From contig NC_022359.1 in the NCBI RefSeq assembly GCF_000354175.2, positions 990,001 to 1,022,000 of the forward strand: 32,000 nt of DNA, read 5' to 3'. Under the pieces are notes generated by a model. That model searched no databases. It was given only the letters and a program-made list of their open reading frames with translations, and was not told where the DNA came from. The translations under genes were made by a program, and so were the position numbers. Origin of the DNA: Vibrio alginolyticus NBRC 15630 = ATCC 17749. Its GTDB lineage: Bacteria; Pseudomonadota; Gammaproteobacteria; Enterobacterales; Vibrionaceae. Shown piece by piece: positions 4,938-20,696 of this stretch (its first letter is position 1; every line of letters begins with the position of its first letter).

Positions 4938-5390
4938 TTAACGACTGATCGGCTGATGCAGTACAACGGTAGTATCAAGCCTTTGAATGCCGTTAAATGA
5001 TTCAATTTCATTACAAAGATGATGAATAGACTGCAGGTCGGGCGCTTCAATTAGGGCAATAATATCAAAGTTGCCACCAACAACGCTCGTTAAGCGAACC
5101 TCAGGAATTTCTTTAAGTGCATTCGTTACATCATTCTTCTTACCCTTTTCACAAGAAATCAGTAGATAACTAGCGGCTTTTCGCCCTTCATTTTCTACAC
5201 GAATCTGTGCGGTATAGCCTTTGATAATACCGGTCTTTTCTAAACGATTAATTCTTTCTGCTACTGCTGTTCGAGACAAACCAATGTTTCGGGATAGATT
5301 CGCAATCGACTCTCGCCCATTCGACAATAGACTTGAAAGTATTTTTCGATCTAATTTATCTAAACCTTGTAAAGTCATGTTTGAAATCAT
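4938..5390 (-). CDS. Lrp/AsnC-family transcriptional regulator embedded in the T6SS cluster
   Basis: 150 aa. N-terminal HTH_AsnC pattern (LDKLDRKILSSLLSNGRESIANLSRNIGLSRTAVAERINRLEKTGIIKGY) and a C-terminal RAM/AsnC_trans_reg-like half. Co-directional with tssM and 31 nt downstream of it. Confidence 0.9.
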   Translation of the reverse strand: MISNMTLQGLDKLDRKILSSLLSNGRESIANLSRNIGLSRTAVAERINRLEKTGIIKGYTAQIRVENEGRKAASYLLISCEKGKKNDVTNALKEIPEVRLTSVVGGNFDIIALIEAPDLQSIHHLCNEIESFNGIQRLDTTVVLHQPISR

Positions 5391-10655: not shown

Positions 10656-11255
10656 ATGCTAAAACCAAGTCAAATTGGGCTGATTTCAGCCATGTGTCTA
10701 TTTTCTTCTGTTGCAATGGCAAAAGGGGAGCGATATGGACTCTCTACCAGTATGTTGACTATCGATAGCATTAAATACGATGAAGGTAAAAGTGGTGAGC
10801 AGGATACGCTTAGGTTCGGCTTGGTTCATACTCGTCCTATTGATGAAAACAATAACCGTTGGCGTTGGTGGTTAGGGCTAAACTATCTAGCAGAAGATAT
10901 TGAAGCGCCAGCAAACGGCTTATATCAAGAAGCGACGAACTATGAACTTCGTGTTGTTCCTCAATATGCGTTGACTTCTTGGAGTGTTTTCACGCCATAT
11001 GTTGGTGCGGGCTTGTCTGTCGGTTACTCGCAATATTCTAATCGTTGGCAAGTAGACCAAGAGGGCTATCGTTATGAGAGTGTTGAAGATATCGACCAGT
11101 TTGAGTTAGGTGCGGTTGTGACCCTTGGTAGTGCTATAAAGTTAGGCAGTAATCCTGACGCCCATATACAAATTATCCCGCAGGCCTCTTATATCCTTCC
11201 GGTTGTAAATGATGGAATTGGTGGGCTTGAACTATCAGTTTCTTTGCTCTTTTGA
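10656..11255 (+). CDS. Small outer-membrane beta-barrel protein (OmpX/OmpW-size), first gene of the tagH-tssJKL operon
   Basis: 199 aa. Signal peptide ending AMA|KG, alternating hydrophobic beta-strand pattern giving about 8 strands, and a C-terminal LLF with aromatic terminal residue typical of BAM substrates. GAGGGA RBS upstream. Confidence 0.7.
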   Translation: MLKPSQIGLISAMCLFSSVAMAKGERYGLSTSMLTIDSIKYDEGKSGEQDTLRFGLVHTRPIDENNNRWRWWLGLNYLAEDIEAPANGLYQEATNYELRVVPQYALTSWSVFTPYVGAGLSVGYSQYSNRWQVDQEGYRYESVEDIDQFELGAVVTLGSAIKLGSNPDAHIQIIPQASYILPVVNDGIGGLELSVSLLF

Positions 11256-14588: not shown

Positions 14589-15376
14589 GTTACGCAGAAA
14601 CCGACGTCACCGTAGTCTTATTCCAACCAGAGCCTGGCAAACCAATGGAGGTAATGCCAGCGCCTGACTTGTCGAGAAACATCGCAGTACAAGATCTATC
14701 TATCGACAACATGGGTATTAACCCGCTAGTGGACCAGTTCTCATGGTTGATCGCCAGTCTGTCTTGTATGTCTTCGATCCCTTGGCTTGATGACCCGATG
14801 CCATTTCGTGAACAAGTGGCACGTGAGATTCGAAAAGGTGAACGAAAACTTAATGAAATGGAGCTCGATCGTGCTTCGGTTCTTGTTATTCGTTACTGCT
14901 TGTGTGCGGCGATTGATGAATCTGTTTGTCGACAAGAGTGGGGGGCAAATAGTCACTGGAGCCAGAACAGCTTACTGTCTGAATTCCACAACGAGACATC
15001 TGGTGGTGACAAGTTTTTCGTTATTCTCGACCGCTTAAAAGCCGACCCTCGCAAATACCGTCACGTTATAGAGTTTCTCTATTTATTGCTTCAACTTGGT
15101 TTCCAAGGCAAGTACGGCCGTGAAGAGCGTGGCAACGAAAAGCTAGCGGAAATTGGCAGCACCATTTATCGATTAGTGCGAGATGACCGCCTAGCAGAAC
15201 AAGAAAAAGTTTCTTTAATCAACCTTAAAGCTAAATATCTAAAGAAGCCGTTAAAAAGGGTAATTTCACCCAAGCTGATCTTAAGTCTTAGTGCGATGAC
15301 GTTTGCGCTTATGTATGCGGCAACCTACATCGTCATAGACTTAAAATTTCAGCAACTGCTTGAAATGTATAGATAA
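14585..15376 (+). CDS. tssL: T6SS membrane subunit TssL (DotU-like), without a peptidoglycan-binding extension
   Basis: DotU-like sequence (IRYCLCAAIDESV, LLQLGFQGKYG) and a single C-terminal TM helix (LILSLSAMTFALMYAATYIVI). ATG 14585 overlaps the tssK stop (ATGA). The ORF-track TTG at 14570 is less likely. Confidence 0.9.
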   Translation: MSYAETDVTVVLFQPEPGKPMEVMPAPDLSRNIAVQDLSIDNMGINPLVDQFSWLIASLSCMSSIPWLDDPMPFREQVAREIRKGERKLNEMELDRASVLVIRYCLCAAIDESVCRQEWGANSHWSQNSLLSEFHNETSGGDKFFVILDRLKADPRKYRHVIEFLYLLLQLGFQGKYGREERGNEKLAEIGSTIYRLVRDDRLAEQEKVSLINLKAKYLKKPLKRVISPKLILSLSAMTFALMYAATYIVIDLKFQQLLEMYR

Positions 15377-15420
15377 CCAGAGATCTAAAATGAGATCTTC
15401 TGCCAGTTTTAGGGTTTATT

Positions 15421-15452
15421 GTGAATATCACTGGTCTTTTAGTGAAATTCAC
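15421..15452. promoter_or_regulatory. Two related 11-bp palindromes GTGA-N3-TCAC spaced 21 bp centre to centre (candidate operator)
   Basis: gtgaatatcac at 15421-15431 and gtgaaattcac at 15442-15452, in the tssL / PAAR-like intergenic gap. Confidence 0.35.
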
Positions 15453-15462
15453 TAGTTATTTA

Positions 15463-15490
15463 GAGAGATTGCAGTTTGCGATCTCTTTTA
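15463..15490 (+). terminator. Terminator-like hairpin upstream of the PAAR-like gene
   Basis: Stem agagat (15464-15469) / atctct (15481-15486), with inner gca/tgc pairing, followed by tttta. The T tract is weak. Confidence 0.35.
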
Positions 15491-15523
15491 TCATTCAATC
15501 AATAAAATTCAAATGGATTGGTT

Positions 15524-16981
15524 ATGGGCGTAACAGTTGGTGCGAATGGACTTTCGATAGTTCATAAAGGCTCAGGTGGTGAAGCGAATGCAACGCTCCC
15601 AGATGTTTGTTTAACTAAGGTCGGCAAGCCAGTCGTCCCTATCCCTTATGGCAACAATGCTAAATCAGCAGACCTTGCTGGTGGGACTACGACAGTCTCT
15701 ATGGATGGCGGTAACAGTGTCGCTATCAAGGGCAGTACGTTCTCAAAAAGTACCGGCGATGCGGGCGGTGACAGAAAAGGCGTTTCCTCAGGCACGATAG
15801 AAGCCGAAGCAAAATTCATTTCAGCCTCACCAACAGTCAAGTTTGAAGGCAAGGGCGTATGTCGCCTGTCCGATCAAATGACCATGAACAAAGCCAACAC
15901 TATGTGTTTGGGTGGCGCACAAAACCCATCGGTTTCTGTGACTGAAGAGCAGGAAGGGACGTATACGCTGGATATAGAATGCAAATATCCAAATGGGCTC
16001 CCTTACTCTAATGCAAAATTTTCTTTAGTCGAACCTTCAGGTGCTGTCATTGGGAGTGGAGTGCTGGACTCTAGCGGAAAAGCATCTGTTAATGGTCTCG
16101 CTCTAAAAGAATGCAGGTTAGTGCTCAGCGAAACTCAAGACTCTTACACCCCGAACCAATCTTTAGCTGAAAATATTGTGACGGAAACTTACCCTGATCC
16201 GAATGATTTTTGTACGTTTGTCGCAGGTCGCCGCTCACCATTTTGGGAAGATCGTGTTGGGGTTGCTAATGACTGGGGGATATTGATGTCCCCATCCTTC
16301 AGTGATGATGACTTTAAAGACATTGTGTTAGAGCAAAGCCGTATATCGTCTCCTTATGCGATTAGTCAAAATCACTCTAAAGACTTTTCTGATGCTTATG
16401 TTTCGGCACTTTATCACATCCAAACTGATACTACTGCGCTAGAGAAATATGAACCTTTAGTTGAACTGCTCTTGGAGCAAGTGCACGAAAATGGCGATAT
16501 ATTGAGAGTCTTATATCAAGCTGATGTGTTTGAGCCTCCCTATGAATTATTAGCGAAGCTTCGCTTTTTAGGGACTGGGAATACTGTGAAGTATTTGCAG
16601 TTTGTTTTATGGACGTTGATAAACAATCAAATCTGTTCATACATCGATGAGCTAAACAGTGAAATCATCGGTCGTTTAGATTTCATACAAAGCCAAGCTT
16701 CTGCAAGATCGTTGAGTTCTGTTGAAGAGGGTATAAACGGTTATAAAAAAGCACTTAACCACTTCAAACAAGCACTTCCTGACGTCATTAGCCAAATTTT
16801 CGAAACCAAAAATGACACCCTAATTTCTATATCGGCAATGGCCCTTGGGAGTACCGTTAACATAGCGAGCCAATCTAGCTTTGCTACTAATTTAGGTAGG
16901 GTTAATGCGGTGGTGTACACGAAGTCAAACAACTTGAACCGCCCATCATTTGTCACTTTTGACGATAACTTTTCTGACTAG
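15524..16981 (+). CDS. PAAR-like (DUF4150-type) T6SS spike-tip protein with a beta-sandwich linker and a C-terminal domain of about 280 aa of unknown function
   Basis: The N-terminal 135 aa or so (VGANGLSIVHKGSGGEANATLPDVCLTKVGKPVVPIPYGNNAKS...VKFEGKGVCRLSDQMTMNKANTMCLGG) match the DUF4150 PAAR-like pattern. They are followed by GTYTLDIECKYPNGLPYSNAKFSLVEPSGAVIGSGVLDSSGKASVNGL (transthyretin/CarboxypepD_reg-like pattern). The remainder has no motif I recognise. ATG 15524 is preferred over TTG 15518. Confidence 0.85.
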   Translation: MGVTVGANGLSIVHKGSGGEANATLPDVCLTKVGKPVVPIPYGNNAKSADLAGGTTTVSMDGGNSVAIKGSTFSKSTGDAGGDRKGVSSGTIEAEAKFISASPTVKFEGKGVCRLSDQMTMNKANTMCLGGAQNPSVSVTEEQEGTYTLDIECKYPNGLPYSNAKFSLVEPSGAVIGSGVLDSSGKASVNGLALKECRLVLSETQDSYTPNQSLAENIVTETYPDPNDFCTFVAGRRSPFWEDRVGVANDWGILMSPSFSDDDFKDIVLEQSRISSPYAISQNHSKDFSDAYVSALYHIQTDTTALEKYEPLVELLLEQVHENGDILRVLYQADVFEPPYELLAKLRFLGTGNTVKYLQFVLWTLINNQICSYIDELNSEIIGRLDFIQSQASARSLSSVEEGINGYKKALNHFKQALPDVISQIFETKNDTLISISAMALGSTVNIASQSSFATNLGRVNAVVYTKSNNLNRPSFVTFDDNFSD

Positions 16982-16993
16982 GACATTTAAATC

Positions 16994-18997
16994 ATGGATG
17001 CAGTTTTTCCGATAGCGCAACGAGAAGGTGACGCTTACTACACGCTCAGTGATTTTACGAAATTGTTTGATCAAGCTAAGAGCGGTCGTTATTTAATAGG
17101 ACAAGGGTACGGTTGGCATAGTGGCATTCACTTAACATCAAAAATGTTACCGTGGGGGAAAGGGCTCAGACCTATTCAAGCGATGCTTGATGGAAAAATA
17201 GTGGCATTTCGCATAAATCCTGATTACCTAACATCAACGTACCAAGAGCAAGAGTTTAAGTATAGTAATAACTTTGTGCTTATCGAGCATGAGGCTGTAA
17301 ACCCCGAAGATAATGAAGATGTATTTAAGTTCTATACACTTTATATGCACCTTGCGCCACCTTCAGATATTGGCGCCAATTCATCTATAACCACGCGTTA
17401 CCGTTTACAAGAAGCGAGAAATGTACGCACTTTCAAACATAGTGATGTGCCTACTAATTCTGGTGAAAAAAAACAGTCGATGTCTAAAGGAACATTACTT
17501 GAATACCTGTATGCAGAAGAGAAGGAGACCCATCCATACCAGATCGACAAAAATACCTACAAAATGATAAAGTGCCGTGTGGTAGAGAATGGTAAATCGG
17601 CAAGTGGTAGCGAAAAAGCACTGTTAAACAAGATTGTTTGGTTTGCTTCGGGTCTCAATAGTGACTTTGACATTTTAGAAGATTCCTCTGCTGTCCTATC
17701 AGAACCAGTTTCAGAACCTAAATGGATGTCGGACAAGGCGGCAATGATTAGGGACGGTAGTGTGGTTTCTTTACTCCCACTCCTATTTAGAGAGGGGATA
17801 AAGGTTTCAGCTGGGGAAGATATCGGTTACATGGGACTGCATGAGTACAGTAACGATGCAATTGGAACTAAGAAAGAAGATAATCGTGTGCATATCGAGA
17901 TGTTCTCTTTTGAGGAGCCGCCCGAATTTTTCAAAAAACAGATTTCTCCCAAAAATGCGGAAGAAAATCCACTTGTTGTTCTCGATGGGGCCGATAGTAG
18001 CGGTGCCGTTGATATGAGTAATTCGTTTATTCAGCAATTACTTGAATCTGTGACAGAAGATCAAGTAACGGACTTCTCCTCGTTCACTGCTCGCGATGCC
18101 AAAGTATACTTAGACGGTAAGCGTAAACACTTTGAGCGATTTATTGTGAAACATCCTACAGATTGGCATACAGAGTCGTCACAAAGTCTTTATGAATCAA
18201 TCCATCAGACCGCAAAGGAAGCTCTAGATATTAAGTGCTCCGCTGGTTTTGTGACTATAGAGGACTACCGTAACTCCCCATGGCGCGATCAAGTGATGGA
18301 TAGCTTTGATCTTTTCTCACAATTCGAACTGGAAAGAGCAGATAAGTTCTCATGGATGCAAGATTTACATGGTGATTTGCAACTAAGCGATGATAAGAGC
18401 CTTTGGCATTATTGGCCTTTTACATTGAATGTTACGAAATTAAGTGAATGTAAATTATCAATTGACCACGAGTTTATAGGTGAACTTGAAGGTAGCAGAA
18501 AAAAAGGATATGTTCCTGACCCTAAGAATAGTAAGAGTGGGGTAACTATTGCTACTGGCTTCGATTTAGGAGCAAGAAACATAGTTGATTTGAGAAAACT
18601 CGAACTACCGAGTGACCTTATAACAAAGCTCACCCCATATCTAGGTATGAAGAAATTTGAAGCAGAATCTTTTTTGAAAAAAAATCCGTTAACTATTAAT
18701 GAAGATGAGTTGCTTTTAATTAATCACGTAGTTAAAAAGCATGAAACTGAAAAAATCATAGCGTTGTATAATAAAAATTCTCAGATTGAATTTGCCTGCT
18801 TACCAAGTCAAGCTCAAACTGTAATTGCTTCCGTTGCCTATCAATATGGTTATCTACCTCGTGAAACTAGAAAGTTCTGGTTTCAAGCTGTAAACCAGAA
18901 GTGGGAAGAAATGTATGATAATCTAATGGACTTTAGGGATCTATATCCAACACGCAGAAAAAAAGAAGCGTTATTACTTAAGGAAATTATTGAATGA
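16994..18997 (+). CDS. Putative T6SS cargo effector: M23/LytM-like peptidase region fused to a T4-lysozyme/pesticin-like muramidase domain
   Basis: The N-terminal half aligns by eye with the lysostaphin/LytM motif order: GWHSGIHL (H42-x3-H46), DGKIVAF, FYTLYMHL (H119), VSAGEDIGYMG, RVHIEMF (H300, E302). The C-terminal 180 aa or so, FIGELEGSRKKGYVPDPKNSKSGVTIATGFDLG, parallels the T4L E11/D20/T26 region ([21 protein letters not shown]). No signal peptide. Confidence 0.7.
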   Translation: MDAVFPIAQREGDAYYTLSDFTKLFDQAKSGRYLIGQGYGWHSGIHLTSKMLPWGKGLRPIQAMLDGKIVAFRINPDYLTSTYQEQEFKYSNNFVLIEHEAVNPEDNEDVFKFYTLYMHLAPPSDIGANSSITTRYRLQEARNVRTFKHSDVPTNSGEKKQSMSKGTLLEYLYAEEKETHPYQIDKNTYKMIKCRVVENGKSASGSEKALLNKIVWFASGLNSDFDILEDSSAVLSEPVSEPKWMSDKAAMIRDGSVVSLLPLLFREGIKVSAGEDIGYMGLHEYSNDAIGTKKEDNRVHIEMFSFEEPPEFFKKQISPKNAEENPLVVLDGADSSGAVDMSNSFIQQLLESVTEDQVTDFSSFTARDAKVYLDGKRKHFERFIVKHPTDWHTESSQSLYESIHQTAKEALDIKCSAGFVTIEDYRNSPWRDQVMDSFDLFSQFELERADKFSWMQDLHGDLQLSDDKSLWHYWPFTLNVTKLSECKLSIDHEFIGELEGSRKKGYVPDPKNSKSGVTIATGFDLGARNIVDLRKLELPSDLITKLTPYLGMKKFEAESFLKKNPLTINEDELLLINHVVKKHETEKIIALYNKNSQIEFACLPSQAQTVIASVAYQYGYLPRETRKFWFQAVNQKWEEMYDNLMDFRDLYPTRRKKEALLLKEIIE

Positions 18998-19392
18998 ATT
19001 ATAATAGACTATTAATTACTTTGGCTGTGATTTGGTCAGGTTTGACTAGTGCAGCTTCAATGACGGATATTTATGAATTGTTAGACTTTACATCATTCCC
19101 TAACTCACTGAACCCCAAAAGCATCGAAGAAAGGCATTTTTCTGATTTTCAAGGTGAATTCAAACTTGCAGTACCAAAAATAACAAAAGATGAGATTGTA
19201 ATAGATGATGACCATTGGTATTACAAGATTGAGTTAATGGAAATTAAAGGTGATAATGTGTACCTTTGCTTTCATGATAAATCTAAGGTCGGCACTTATG
19301 ACTCTGTGCAACCTATTGTTGTTAGAAGATATGGGAATGATTTTGTTGCTTTAGCATTGGACCCAACTTCTTCAAACCAAGAGTGTAAGTAA
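18994..19392 (+). CDS. Small secreted protein, candidate periplasmic immunity protein for the upstream effector
   Basis: 132 aa. Sec signal peptide (LLITLAVIWSGLTSAAS). The ATG overlaps the effector stop (ATGA at 18994-18997), the classic effector-immunity coupling. Confidence 0.65.
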   Translation: MNYNRLLITLAVIWSGLTSAASMTDIYELLDFTSFPNSLNPKSIEERHFSDFQGEFKLAVPKITKDEIVIDDDHWYYKIELMEIKGDNVYLCFHDKSKVGTYDSVQPIVVRRYGNDFVALALDPTSSNQECK

Positions 19393-19657
19393 TTATACCG
19401 ATTTAGACTTTGGGTTTTAATGTAGAAGAAATAAAATAGCTGTTTATTTAGTAATTAGTTTTATACAGTGATTACGGGCAGATATATTCCTATAAGGAAT
19501 AGTCACTATTAATAAATGTAATTAGAGTTGGAGTCAATTTGGTTAATGTTTCATATGTTCCTTAACTTTACTCAGATTACATCCTTACTATTTTTCTTCT
19601 CTTCCGTTCTAAGTAAATGCTGCGTGTGAGCAAAGCTCAGTTGTATTCACATGTAAT

Positions 19658-20041
19658 TTGGAAAATAAAGACAGTGGCTTGAAAGCTTGTTTTAATCAAG
19701 CCGAGAATTCGATGTACTTCGTTGTTGACGAAAATGGATTGAAAACAGTTTATGCCCCACGAAAGGGGAAGAGTTTAGATAATTATAAATGGATAGATAT
19801 TTCTCTTGAAGAACCTGAATTCATTCCTTTGAAATTTGAAGTAAATGAAAACAAGAATGCGTACTTTTCATTGACTAGAGGTGGTGGACGGTTGAGTGTC
19901 GTTGCTAGCTTCGTTGACATGATTGAAGATGAAAATGCTGTTGAGTACTACTGTGAATGGGAAACTGAAACAGCTCTGGATCCCAACGTTAGATTAAAAA
20001 TAAAACACGTAAAGCCCAATGGGTTTGAAGCTTGGGATTAA
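19658..20041 (+). CDS. Hypothetical small cytosolic protein (start uncertain; TTG 19658 or ATG 19712)
   Basis: 127-codon ORF with protein-like composition, ending about 100 nt before a strong terminator. It has no signal peptide and no upstream in-frame ATG or GTG; the frame opens at 19613 after a TAA. No SD is visible. Confidence 0.45.
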   Translation: MENKDSGLKACFNQAENSMYFVVDENGLKTVYAPRKGKSLDNYKWIDISLEEPEFIPLKFEVNENKNAYFSLTRGGGRLSVVASFVDMIEDENAVEYYCEWETETALDPNVRLKIKHVKPNGFEAWD

Positions 20042-20144
20042 ATAGCAATAGATTCCAGTGAGAGCCTAAATAAAATTCATTGTAATAAAGAGTTAGCTTT
20101 TCTAGAAAATTTACTCGAGACGTTTGGATAAGAAACGTTCAGAT

Positions 20145-20172
20145 AAAAAGCGCCGAAAGGCGCTTTTTATTT
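20145..20172 (+). terminator. Rho-independent terminator
   Basis: aaaaagcgcc / ggcgcttttt stem (20145-20154 / 20159-20168) with a GAAA loop, then a T-rich tail. The A tract upstream makes it potentially bidirectional. Confidence 0.8.
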
Positions 20173-20244
20173 TCTTTAAAATAAAGTATGGTCTCCCTCC
20201 TTTTAAAATGGTAAGTGTTGAATAATTCAACAGTGGTTAGGTAA

Positions 20245-20655
20245 ATGAATAAAATAACTAAACTCGCTTTGACTTTGTCCGTATTGACATCTGTTGTTGG
20301 GTGTCAACTGGTCTCAAATACGCCGATGCAATCGACAGCAACGAAGGAAATAATTGAAAAAGCAAAGGCAGAGTTTGATGGACAACGTTTTTATAAGTTG
20401 AATGAATATGATGAAGAAATCAACGTTTCAGATGACGGTGTCATTACCTTCAAGTCTTACTTACCACGCAGCGGCGGCTATGAATGGGTACCAATTGTGA
20501 TACGCGATACTAGTTTTCGTGTTTCTTGCGATTATTTCAGTGAATATGTTGAAGCTGGAATGGTTGTTCAGGTTCAGTTTGTAGGTAAACGCGGGCGCAT
20601 TGAAAATTACGACAAGCAACGTTGTGAAGAGTTTGGCGAGCCAACATGGCAATAA
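20245..20655 (+). CDS. Small lipoprotein, candidate second or orphan immunity protein
   Basis: 136 aa. Lipobox LTSVVGC (MNKITKLALTLSVLTSVVGCQ). It stands alone between two near-identical terminators. Confidence 0.6.
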   Translation: MNKITKLALTLSVLTSVVGCQLVSNTPMQSTATKEIIEKAKAEFDGQRFYKLNEYDEEINVSDDGVITFKSYLPRSGGYEWVPIVIRDTSFRVSCDYFSEYVEAGMVVQVQFVGKRGRIENYDKQRCEEFGEPTWQ

Positions 20656-20670
20656 GATCTATGGATAATT

Positions 20671-20696
20671 AAAGCGCCGACAGGCGCTTTTTATTT
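20671..20696 (+). terminator. Rho-independent terminator, near-identical copy of the one at 20147-20172
   Basis: aaagcgcc / ggcgcttt stem with a GACA loop and a ttttattt tail. 25 of 26 nt are identical to 20147-20172. Confidence 0.8.

Follow-up and report, generated by a model that had tools for sequence, protein, structure and literature searches.

The question raised by this locus is what occupies the variable end of a type VI secretion system (T6SS) cluster in Vibrio alginolyticus, and whether its content is new. We analysed a window of 32,000 nucleotides (nt) from V. alginolyticus NBRC 15630 = ATCC 17749 (NC_022359.1, 990,001 to 1,022,000; positions are counted from the first letter of this stretch). 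In it the T6SS core genes end with tssL (PF09850/TIGR03349; stop at 15376), which is followed by a 147-nt gap and five + strand open reading frames (ORFs) at 15524-16981, 16994-18997, 18994-19392, 19658-20041 and 20245-20655, specifying proteins of 485, 667, 132, 127 and 136 aa, respectively. The second starts 12 nt past the first, and the third overlaps it by 4 nt. An earlier inspection of the letters alone (the sequence-only reading) had described this layout correctly, the structured gap included, and had taken the whole for an undescribed effector-delivery module. We propose, with a probability of roughly 0.8, that the region is the variable 3' end of a V. alginolyticus-type T6SS1 cluster made of parts that are already known: a PAAR1-type spike tip, a WHIX::Pesticin cargo effector with its immunity gene, an orphaned remnant of another immunity gene, and a lipoprotein of the flank. 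It is an ordinary, common and well-annotated allele of a known T6SS1 effector locus.

The closest known system is that of V. alginolyticus 12G01, where Va01440 ('PAAR1') and Va01435 were found in the T6SS1 secretome and Va01435/Va01430 were identified as an effector/immunity pair (Salomon et al. 2015, PMC4549250). The same laboratory subsequently defined the WHIX domain on residues 1-477 of the effector Va01435, reported that WHIX suffices for secretion by the T6SS and is non-toxic alone, listed 'Pesticin lysozyme-like' among the WHIX C-terminal toxin types (448 proteins), and observed WHIX genes in the neighbourhood of those for VgrG and PAAR (Fridman et al. 2025, PMC12135965). The Va01440/Va01435/Va01430 module shares with ours its position after tssL and its right flank (MFS, AraC, LysR, SDR, Usp). 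It differs in that the toxin of the window is Pesticin-like rather than GH19/lysozyme-like, the 132-aa immunity protein is a different one, and the window has in addition a truncated Va01430-type remnant and an extra lipoprotein gene. The term 'undescribed' thus does not apply to a module published in 2015 and a class published in 2025; as a common, database-annotated allele whose counterparts have been characterised, the region has little weight as a discovery.

By homology, the 667-aa product is a WHIX subclass I cargo effector with a Pesticin-like muramidase. Its first ~480 residues are 99-100% identical to those of 725-aa V. alginolyticus proteins encoded at the Va01435 position, and the C-terminus differs. 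WHIX is described as a bipartite domain that forms a single module with a deep cavity, and of its two conserved regions the first contains the WHxxxH motif. In the window effector this motif is present as W41-H42...H46 (W41-H42-S-G-I-H46); these three residues are at least 90% conserved among 20 homologues down to 20% identity, and H42, H46, H99, H119, H300 and E302 are invariant or near-invariant. The AlphaFold2 (AF2) model of residues 1-480 has a mean predicted local distance difference test score (pLDDT) of 85.7 and a predicted template modelling score of 0.87. Beyond WHIX, the Pesticin family (PF16754) matches residues 490-638 at E = 2.3e-44. Structures of Yersinia pesticin match the effector at E = 7e-14, and their E178, T201 and D207, which we take to be the catalytic residues, align with E499, T518 and D524. 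NCBI names the protein 'pesticin C-terminus-like muramidase', and the Pesticin allele is common in V. alginolyticus. As in WHIX subclass I, we find an N-terminal WHIX with WHxxxH, a catalogued peptidoglycan-targeting toxin type, a downstream immunity gene and a spike component as neighbour; unlike the published case, that neighbour is PAAR-like and not VgrG.

The sequence-only reading had seen in this protein an unmarked dual cell-wall hydrolase. Neither part of that description survives, WHIX being itself a marker, reported to be non-toxic, and Pesticin the one cell-wall hydrolase domain that can be demonstrated. The C-terminal domains that relatives combine with WHIX are GH19-like, GH108, VgrG3-like, Pesticin or genuine M23.

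The WHIX part contains a His/Glu pattern, HxxxH ... H ... YMHL ... HxE (nt ~17117-17899), whose spacing resembles that of the M23/LytM zinc site (HxxxD...HxH). It prompted us to consider WHIX as a degenerate M23/LytM domain, and the 2015 paper reported a LytM-like HHpred match (PMC4549250). Our searches did not support the idea: M23 (PF01551) has no match in the N-terminal half at E < 0.1, a profile search against the PDB returned nothing within the WHIX part, and Foldseek gave no significant match for it (lysostaphin at rank 5, E = 0.67). One might speculate that WHIX holds a metal site which grips the C-terminal carboxylate of its partner. Several WHIX homologues carry the database name 'EF-hand domain protein', and the WHIX effector of Photobacterium halotolerans (L009:11468-13615) has EF-hand Pfam matches at residues 358-382, within WHIX. 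The equivalent loop of the window effector lies at ~330-345 (LDGADSSGAVDMSN) and is conserved in the alignment, with the consensus IDGSxSDGALD; WHIX may contain a calcium-binding loop.

How the Pesticin allele arose can be read from the DNA. The window is 99.1% identical to GH19-type V. alginolyticus up to 18421, the end of WHIX, and homology resumes at 19625. Across 18422-19624, which holds the Pesticin domain and the immunity gene, the GC content is 33-37%, whereas the cluster around it has ~44%; a cassette acquired recently from a lower-GC donor would fit this drop. In ordinary V. alginolyticus the 725-aa effector is followed by a 161-aa protein with a signal peptide; the 127-aa ORF (19658-20041) of the window is 89% identical to residues 35-160 of this immunity protein and has lost the signal peptide. 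Because of the two breakpoints and the truncated Va01430-type remnant, the event is read as a replacement in which a Pesticin + immunity cassette took the place of the GH19 domain together with the 5' part of the immunity gene belonging to it. The GH19-type toxin domain would have been displaced through recombination at the WHIX end. The locus is a clean example of toxin-domain/immunity cassette replacement: the breakpoint falls precisely where WHIX ends, and an immunity gene was left behind as a truncated orphan.

The 132-aa protein is the candidate periplasmic immunity protein for the Pesticin domain. It matches no Pfam family, and inspection shows an N-terminal hydrophobic, signal-like segment. 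The exact sequence occurs on 121 contigs, UniRef calls it 'Pesticin immunity protein', and V. owensii, with the Pesticin variant, has a copy of 96% identity. Which gene follows the effector varies with the toxin domain, this being the 132-aa type behind Pesticin, the 161-aa Va01430 type behind GH19-like and a TsiV3-family gene behind VgrG3-like domains. Immunity families TsiV2 and TsiV3 were noted behind WHIX effectors with other C-termini, in P. damselae (L084:11356-12051) and V. chemaguriensis (L081:8058-8459), respectively; these cases illustrate free exchange of toxin/immunity cassettes behind a constant WHIX domain.

The last ORF specifies a 136-aa predicted lipoprotein with no significant Pfam match. 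A copy 98% identical is found in V. chemaguriensis (L081, 9557-9967) next to the VgrG3-like variant, and one with 99% protein identity in V. diabolicus (L019, 13488-13895), where a 505-aa PAAR toxin is present and no WHIX gene. The gene is not present in a GH19-type V. alginolyticus (L078). Its presence or absence in the T6SS1 end region of the Harveyi clade is independent of effector type, and from this distribution it is judged a flank gene unrelated to the effector. Perhaps it is an orphaned immunity gene whose periplasmic toxin is missing from this locus. A role as second immunity protein of a 'double-blade' effector was discarded, the effector belonging to subclass I with no N-terminal toxin and the lipoprotein occurring in the WHIX-less V. 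diabolicus. Of the small products, one is accordingly a candidate immunity protein, one the orphaned remnant of an immunity protein and one an unrelated lipoprotein of the flank; they are not the secreted cargo for which the sequence-only reading had taken them; its small 'cytosolic' ORF is the 127-aa one, a truncated form of an immunity gene that normally bears a signal peptide.

The first gene is best described, from homology and modelling, as the trunk of a polymorphic PAAR-FIX toxin without its toxin. DUF4150 (PF13665) matches residues 22-127 at E = 1.6e-35, and residues 39-42 read PIPY, which fits the P(I/V)P(Y/F) motif defined for PAAR-like spike tips (PMC11883445). The N-terminus matches that of the T6SS Rhs protein 8qjc, with no further PDB sequence match, and DUF4150 proteins of V. 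alginolyticus share 99% identity with the whole protein. Residues ~136-205 are probably prealbumin/transthyretin-like; in the equivalent position a relative (P0261) has a PF17802 SpaA prealbumin-like match (residues 157-204), and the segment in the window itself gives only a sub-threshold match to bMG3 (E = 0.04). Residues 206-445 are modelled by AF2 entirely as helices (pLDDT ~88-96), and a fold search with this trunk against solved PDB structures gave no significant match (best E = 0.1).

Alignments with PAAR-like proteins of 660-1470 aa cover between residues 1-435 and residues 1-483 of the protein, and those with the ~505-aa VP1415 type cover 1-377; over the latter stretch P0021 (505 aa), the likely counterpart of VP1415, is 52% identical to it. 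Past the shared trunk, the toxin-bearing relatives carry AHH nuclease, DUF3289, Tle1-like or VasX_N domains, and in two of them VasX_N starts at residue 485, where the window protein ends. A search of 1.84 billion representative proteins found the trunk in 22 clusters only, nearly always at residues ~205-445 of PAAR-like proteins; in three cases it forms the N-terminus (residues ~40-240) of PAAR-less proteins carrying VasX_N or AHH. Since this architecture matches that reported for the FIX marker, a motif of ~80 residues defined on V12_14465 (positions 43-121), and VP1415 is a FIX-containing protein (PMC6688995), the helical trunk is probably a FIX-type scaffold common to polymorphic PAAR-like toxins.

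Toxin domains normally follow FIX-type trunks and a cytosolic-looking small ORF lies downstream, so one could suppose that the C-terminal region of the PAAR-like protein is a cryptic toxin and a small ORF, for example the 127-aa one, its immunity protein. We consider this most improbable. All 485 residues align with the part of larger toxins that is trunk and not toxin, and the toxin domains of these start at the point where the window protein stops. A known toxin fold for the C-terminal region was looked for and rejected, there being no match in Pfam, in PDB sequences past the PAAR-like domain or to any toxin in the fold search. The gene 12 nt downstream is an effector gene and not an immunity gene. 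The 127-aa ORF, as a truncated Va01430-type periplasmic immunity gene of the GH19 cassette, was ruled out as a cytosolic immunity protein for a PAAR toxin, and in ordinary V. alginolyticus any additional small gene is lacking at this locus. The sequence-only reading, too, had recognised no toxin motif in the extension.

It had also stated that related Vibrio clusters carry a PAAR-toxin/immunity pair directly after tssL, and our locus survey does find PAAR-toxin genes there. It had seen no adaptor gene, no MIX-type motif and no VgrG or Hcp fusion; we likewise found no match to the Pfam models for DUF4123, DUF1795, DUF2169, VgrG or Hcp among the scanned ORFs of the window, the module included (Pfam has no model for MIX). 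Its working hypothesis was that a novel, dedicated tether domain in the PAAR C-terminal region loads the hydrolase, with the small secreted proteins as further cargo. An extension with neither toxin motif nor known fold, a window in which Pfam finds no classical adaptor gene, and tight linkage with the downstream gene all speak for such a tether. It is nevertheless very improbable. Papers of 2015 and 2025 had already described the module and its secretion, and the trunk that makes up the 350-aa extension is generic, since it accompanies AHH, Tle1-like and VasX_N toxins as well and occurs even in PAAR-less proteins. The N-terminal half of the supposed dual hydrolase is WHIX, reported to be non-toxic and with no M23 match in Pfam or by fold, and the small proteins have the other identities given above.

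What distinguishes the toxin-less PAAR-like proteins is their company and their last residues. In a survey of 75 loci, one genome per species, all ten intact genes for toxin-less PAAR-like proteins of 484/485 aa in Vibrio and Photobacterium had a WHIX gene 8-15 nt downstream; an eleventh copy (L008) is frameshifted with the layout unchanged. The layout holds across WHIX identities down to 29% and at least three genomic contexts. Among about 50 toxin-bearing PAAR relatives, none had a WHIX gene within 10 kb, and the two arrangements share the slot ~152 nt past tssL in different species. In V. coralliilyticus and Photobacterium the PAAR+WHIX unit is surrounded by housekeeping genes, and genes for VgrG, Hcp or an adaptor are missing there. 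Proteomics has placed both proteins of the pair in the T6SS1 secretome of V. coralliilyticus, the PAAR-like one being filed as a structural component.

The AF2 model gives low confidence to tail residues 451-485 (pLDDT 40-49). Despite this predicted flexibility, the sequence of the tail is kept from Vibrio through Photobacterium and Thaumasiovibrio, and the C-terminus of the toxin-less class has the consensus ...VVYTK..N..RP.F..F.D.[FY]S[DE]. The dipeptide [FY]S is found within the last four residues of 13 of 13 toxin-less proteins, as against two of 107 other PAAR-like homologues. Three VgrG lineages whose tails bear the same dipeptide, P. damselae (...KFRFSS), V. quintilis (...PYGFSG) and Aeromonas (...KVSFSGR), are encoded upstream of WHIX genes at a distance of 14-15 nt or of a single small gene. 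In A. jandaei VgrG4, the residues reported to touch the WHIX cavity agree with the Aeromonas tail, and it is there that the WHIX cavity of Awe1 caps the last 14 residues of VgrG4, which are needed for binding (PMC12135965).

Because of the 10/10 co-occurrence and the [FY]S motif common to the VgrG tails next to WHIX genes, the PAAR tail suggests itself as the docking element for the effector. By this analogy, we lean slightly towards the view that the C-terminal tail of the PAAR-like protein physically contacts WHIX; the docking element would be a flexible tail rather than a domain. The idea that the PAAR-like protein carries a separate effector, put forward in the sequence-only reading, fits the published WHIX model and is therefore kept in part: the linkage and the shared [FY]S speak for it, and the proposed tether domain falls away, only the last residues being specific to the class. 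The wider view, that the toxin-less PIPY/PAAR-like proteins of Vibrionaceae are dedicated WHIX carriers derived from a PAAR-FIX toxin which lost its toxin domain and so exposed a ...x[FY]S[DE] peptide that plugs the WHIX cavity, stands in our judgement at even odds. We found no report of WHIX docking to a PAAR tail in the literature searched, and a 2026 paper describes the molecular workings of the MIX, RIX, PIX, WHIX and FIX markers as still unexamined.

In the mechanism that we envisage, the PIPY domain would cap VgrG1 with the aid of a DUF2169 chaperone encoded elsewhere in the cluster, as has been established for the V. parahaemolyticus homologue (PMC11883445). By analogy with the VgrG4 tail and WHIX, the WHIX cavity of the effector would in turn cap the free C-terminal tail of the PAAR-like protein. 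Firing would carry the effector into the periplasm of the prey, where the muramidase would cut peptidoglycan, and the 132-aa protein would shield kin cells. The window begins at tssC, so that the VgrG1 gene of the cluster and any DUF2169 chaperone gene upstream lie outside it; in V. parahaemolyticus, vp1394 (VgrG) and vp1398 (DUF2169 chaperone) are upstream of tssB (PMC11883445).

Perhaps the PAAR-like protein is only a structural tip, with the WHIX effector loading on the C-terminus of VgrG1 as in Aeromonas and the gene linkage reflecting co-regulation and shared inheritance. The only demonstrated WHIX docking site is indeed a VgrG tail, both source papers, that of 2015 (PMC4549250) among them, file the PAAR-like protein as a structural component, most of its tail is ancestral linker, and the PIPY protein is required for V. 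parahaemolyticus T6SS1 activity in any case (PMC11883445). We think this unlikely, since WHIX never adjoins the toxin-bearing PAAR paralogues, which are equally structural, and PAAR and WHIX travel together, as one pair, to loci lacking VgrG. Moreover, the toxin-less class has a free, conserved [FY]S[DE] end like that of the VgrG tails next to WHIX genes, and a PAAR cap would presumably bury the C-terminus of VgrG unless VgrG1 has an extension.

Returning to tail docking and to the identity of the module, several observations weigh against our interpretation. Toxin-bearing relatives also have the proximal stretch of the tail (VVYTK...[FY]DD), an ancestral pre-toxin linker, which leaves only the last ~4 residues as peculiar to toxin-less proteins. 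The [FY]S motif is short, and VP1415-like toxins end in ...RYS with no WHIX partner. The PAAR-WHIX co-occurrence is partly a matter of shared ancestry, the independent events being few. The sole WHIX partner shown experimentally is VgrG (PMC12135965), and the VgrG1 of this cluster is encoded outside the window. The tie between the window effector and the published WP_005373349.1 rests on species, position and literature, not on the accession. Finally, Thaumasiovibrio has a toxin-less PAAR-like protein whose tail is similar, yet the gene after it specifies a weakly VasX_N-like product instead of WHIX. In Thaumasiovibrio sp. DFM-14 (L013:10001-14777) the PAAR-like protein has 484 aa and the tail ...CFKNSYSE; 364 nt separate it from a 610-aa protein with a weak VasX_N match (E = 5.8e-4), after which a 372-aa predicted lipoprotein is encoded. 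This pair looks like a split version of the PAAR-trunk-VasX_N fusions.

Two uncultured metagenome-assembled genomes (L067:8242-8745 and L068:10001-10429) encode short PAAR-like proteins of 238 and 241 aa with WHIX-like genes 37 and 216 nt downstream, respectively. The downstream genes match the first ~120 residues of WHIX at 31-37% identity, a PAAR-WHIX pairing far beyond Vibrionaceae, and one of the PAAR-like tails ends in ...RISFTQ.

Among known carriers, A. jandaei VgrG4-Awe1 resembles the window pair in that the carrier gene is immediately upstream and has F-S near its C-terminus (...KVSFSGR versus ...DDNFSD). It differs in that here the carrier is PAAR-like, the effector belongs to subclass I with one toxin domain, there is no upstream immunity gene, and the interaction is deduced by comparison. 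VP1415 of V. parahaemolyticus occupies the same slot after tssL, with a ~152-nt gap, a conserved hairpin and, in its likely counterpart P0021, the PIPY motif; unlike the window protein, it is a specialised effector with an AHH nuclease toxin of its own and an immunity gene after it. In the binary MIX effector modules of Vibrio T6SS, a secreted non-toxic protein carries a separate cargo effector. The RIX tethers (PMC10435454) share this concept. The likeness to both is one of resemblance and not of membership: there, RIX or MIX domains sit on non-structural proteins, and the window carrier would be the spike tip itself.

If docking through the tail is true, a C-terminal [FY]S on VgrG and PAAR carriers would be a general and predictable 'WHIX-docking tail'. 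The mechanism published for VgrG only would then extend to the spike tip, and a sequence rule would pair WHIX effectors with their carriers. What the comparative data offer is thus a hypothesis on how WHIX effectors with a PAAR-like neighbour are loaded, namely that a toxin-less trunk inserts its free ...[FY]S[DE] C-terminus into the cavity. The coordinates of the features are collected in Table 1.

Table 1. Features of the region downstream of tssL, in window positions.
Feature	Position	Strand	Basis
tssL/PAAR intergenic region, three hairpins	15377..15523	+	RNA folding
PAAR-like/PIPY (DUF4150) spike-tip domain, residues 1-135 of 485	15524..15928	+	PF13665
Short beta-rich linker domain (predicted), residues ~136-205	15929..16138	+	inference by homology
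All-helical trunk (predicted), residues ~206-445, no toxin domain after it	16139..16858	+	AF2 model, homology
Flexible conserved C-terminal tail, residues ~446-485 and stop, ending ...RPSFVTFDDNFSD	16859..16981	+	AF2, conservation
WHIX secretion/loading domain, effector residues 1-~477	16994..18424	+	identity to V. alginolyticus effectors, motif
Pesticin-type (T4-lysozyme-like) muramidase toxin domain, effector residues ~490-667	18461..18997	+	PF16754
Cognate periplasmic immunity candidate, 132 aa, signal-like N-terminus	18994..19392	+	co-variation with Pesticin, UniRef name
5'-truncated orphan remnant of Va01430-type (GH19-toxin) immunity gene	19625..20041	+	homology to 161-aa protein
136-aa predicted lipoprotein, variable flank gene	20245..20655	+	lipobox VVGC (by inspection)
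Terminator-like hairpin ending the module, ahead of convergent MFS transporter gene	20671..20690	+	consensus match only

The 147-nt gap folds with a minimum free energy of -42.8 kcal/mol (z = -4.08 against 200 shuffles). Of its three hairpins only the third, at 15462-15486 (AGAGAGATTGCAGTTTGCGATCTCT), is conserved in a comparison of 15 loci, where 5 of its 12 pairs show compensatory changes. This hairpin is terminator-like, with a T-run behind it (to ~15490). A hairpin with T-run lies ~35-60 nt 5' of the PAAR start codon in many Vibrio species, and one was noted at the equivalent position in 12 survey loci (L001, L005, L006, L017, L019, L023, L024, L032, L033, L035, L042 and L050). Since hairpin 3 is present regardless of which PAAR type comes next, it looks like a generic terminator or attenuator of the tssL/PAAR junction that is not specific to the module. 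As an attenuator it could set expression of the spike-tip/effector operon apart from that of the core genes. A module-specific riboregulator in the gap was ruled out, the sole conserved part being a terminator-like hairpin found with every PAAR type. The hairpin that ends the module has an 8-pair stem with five G-C pairs, plus a T-run.

The core genes of the window run in the order tssC, tssE, tssF, tssG, a gene for an AsnC-type regulator, tssM, tssA, a gene for an outer membrane protein (OMP)-like product, an FHA gene, tssJ, tssK and tssL. The module follows, and after it come unrelated genes for an MFS transporter, AraC, LysR, SDR and Usp proteins and a Mrp antiporter operon. The AsnC/Lrp-type regulator gene (4938-5390, - strand) sits inside the T6SS core genes and may correspond to a T6SS1 regulator already known from V. 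alginolyticus and V. parahaemolyticus (Va01475/VP1407). Also embedded among the core genes, on the + strand at 10656-11255, is the gene for the small OMP beta-barrel-like protein.

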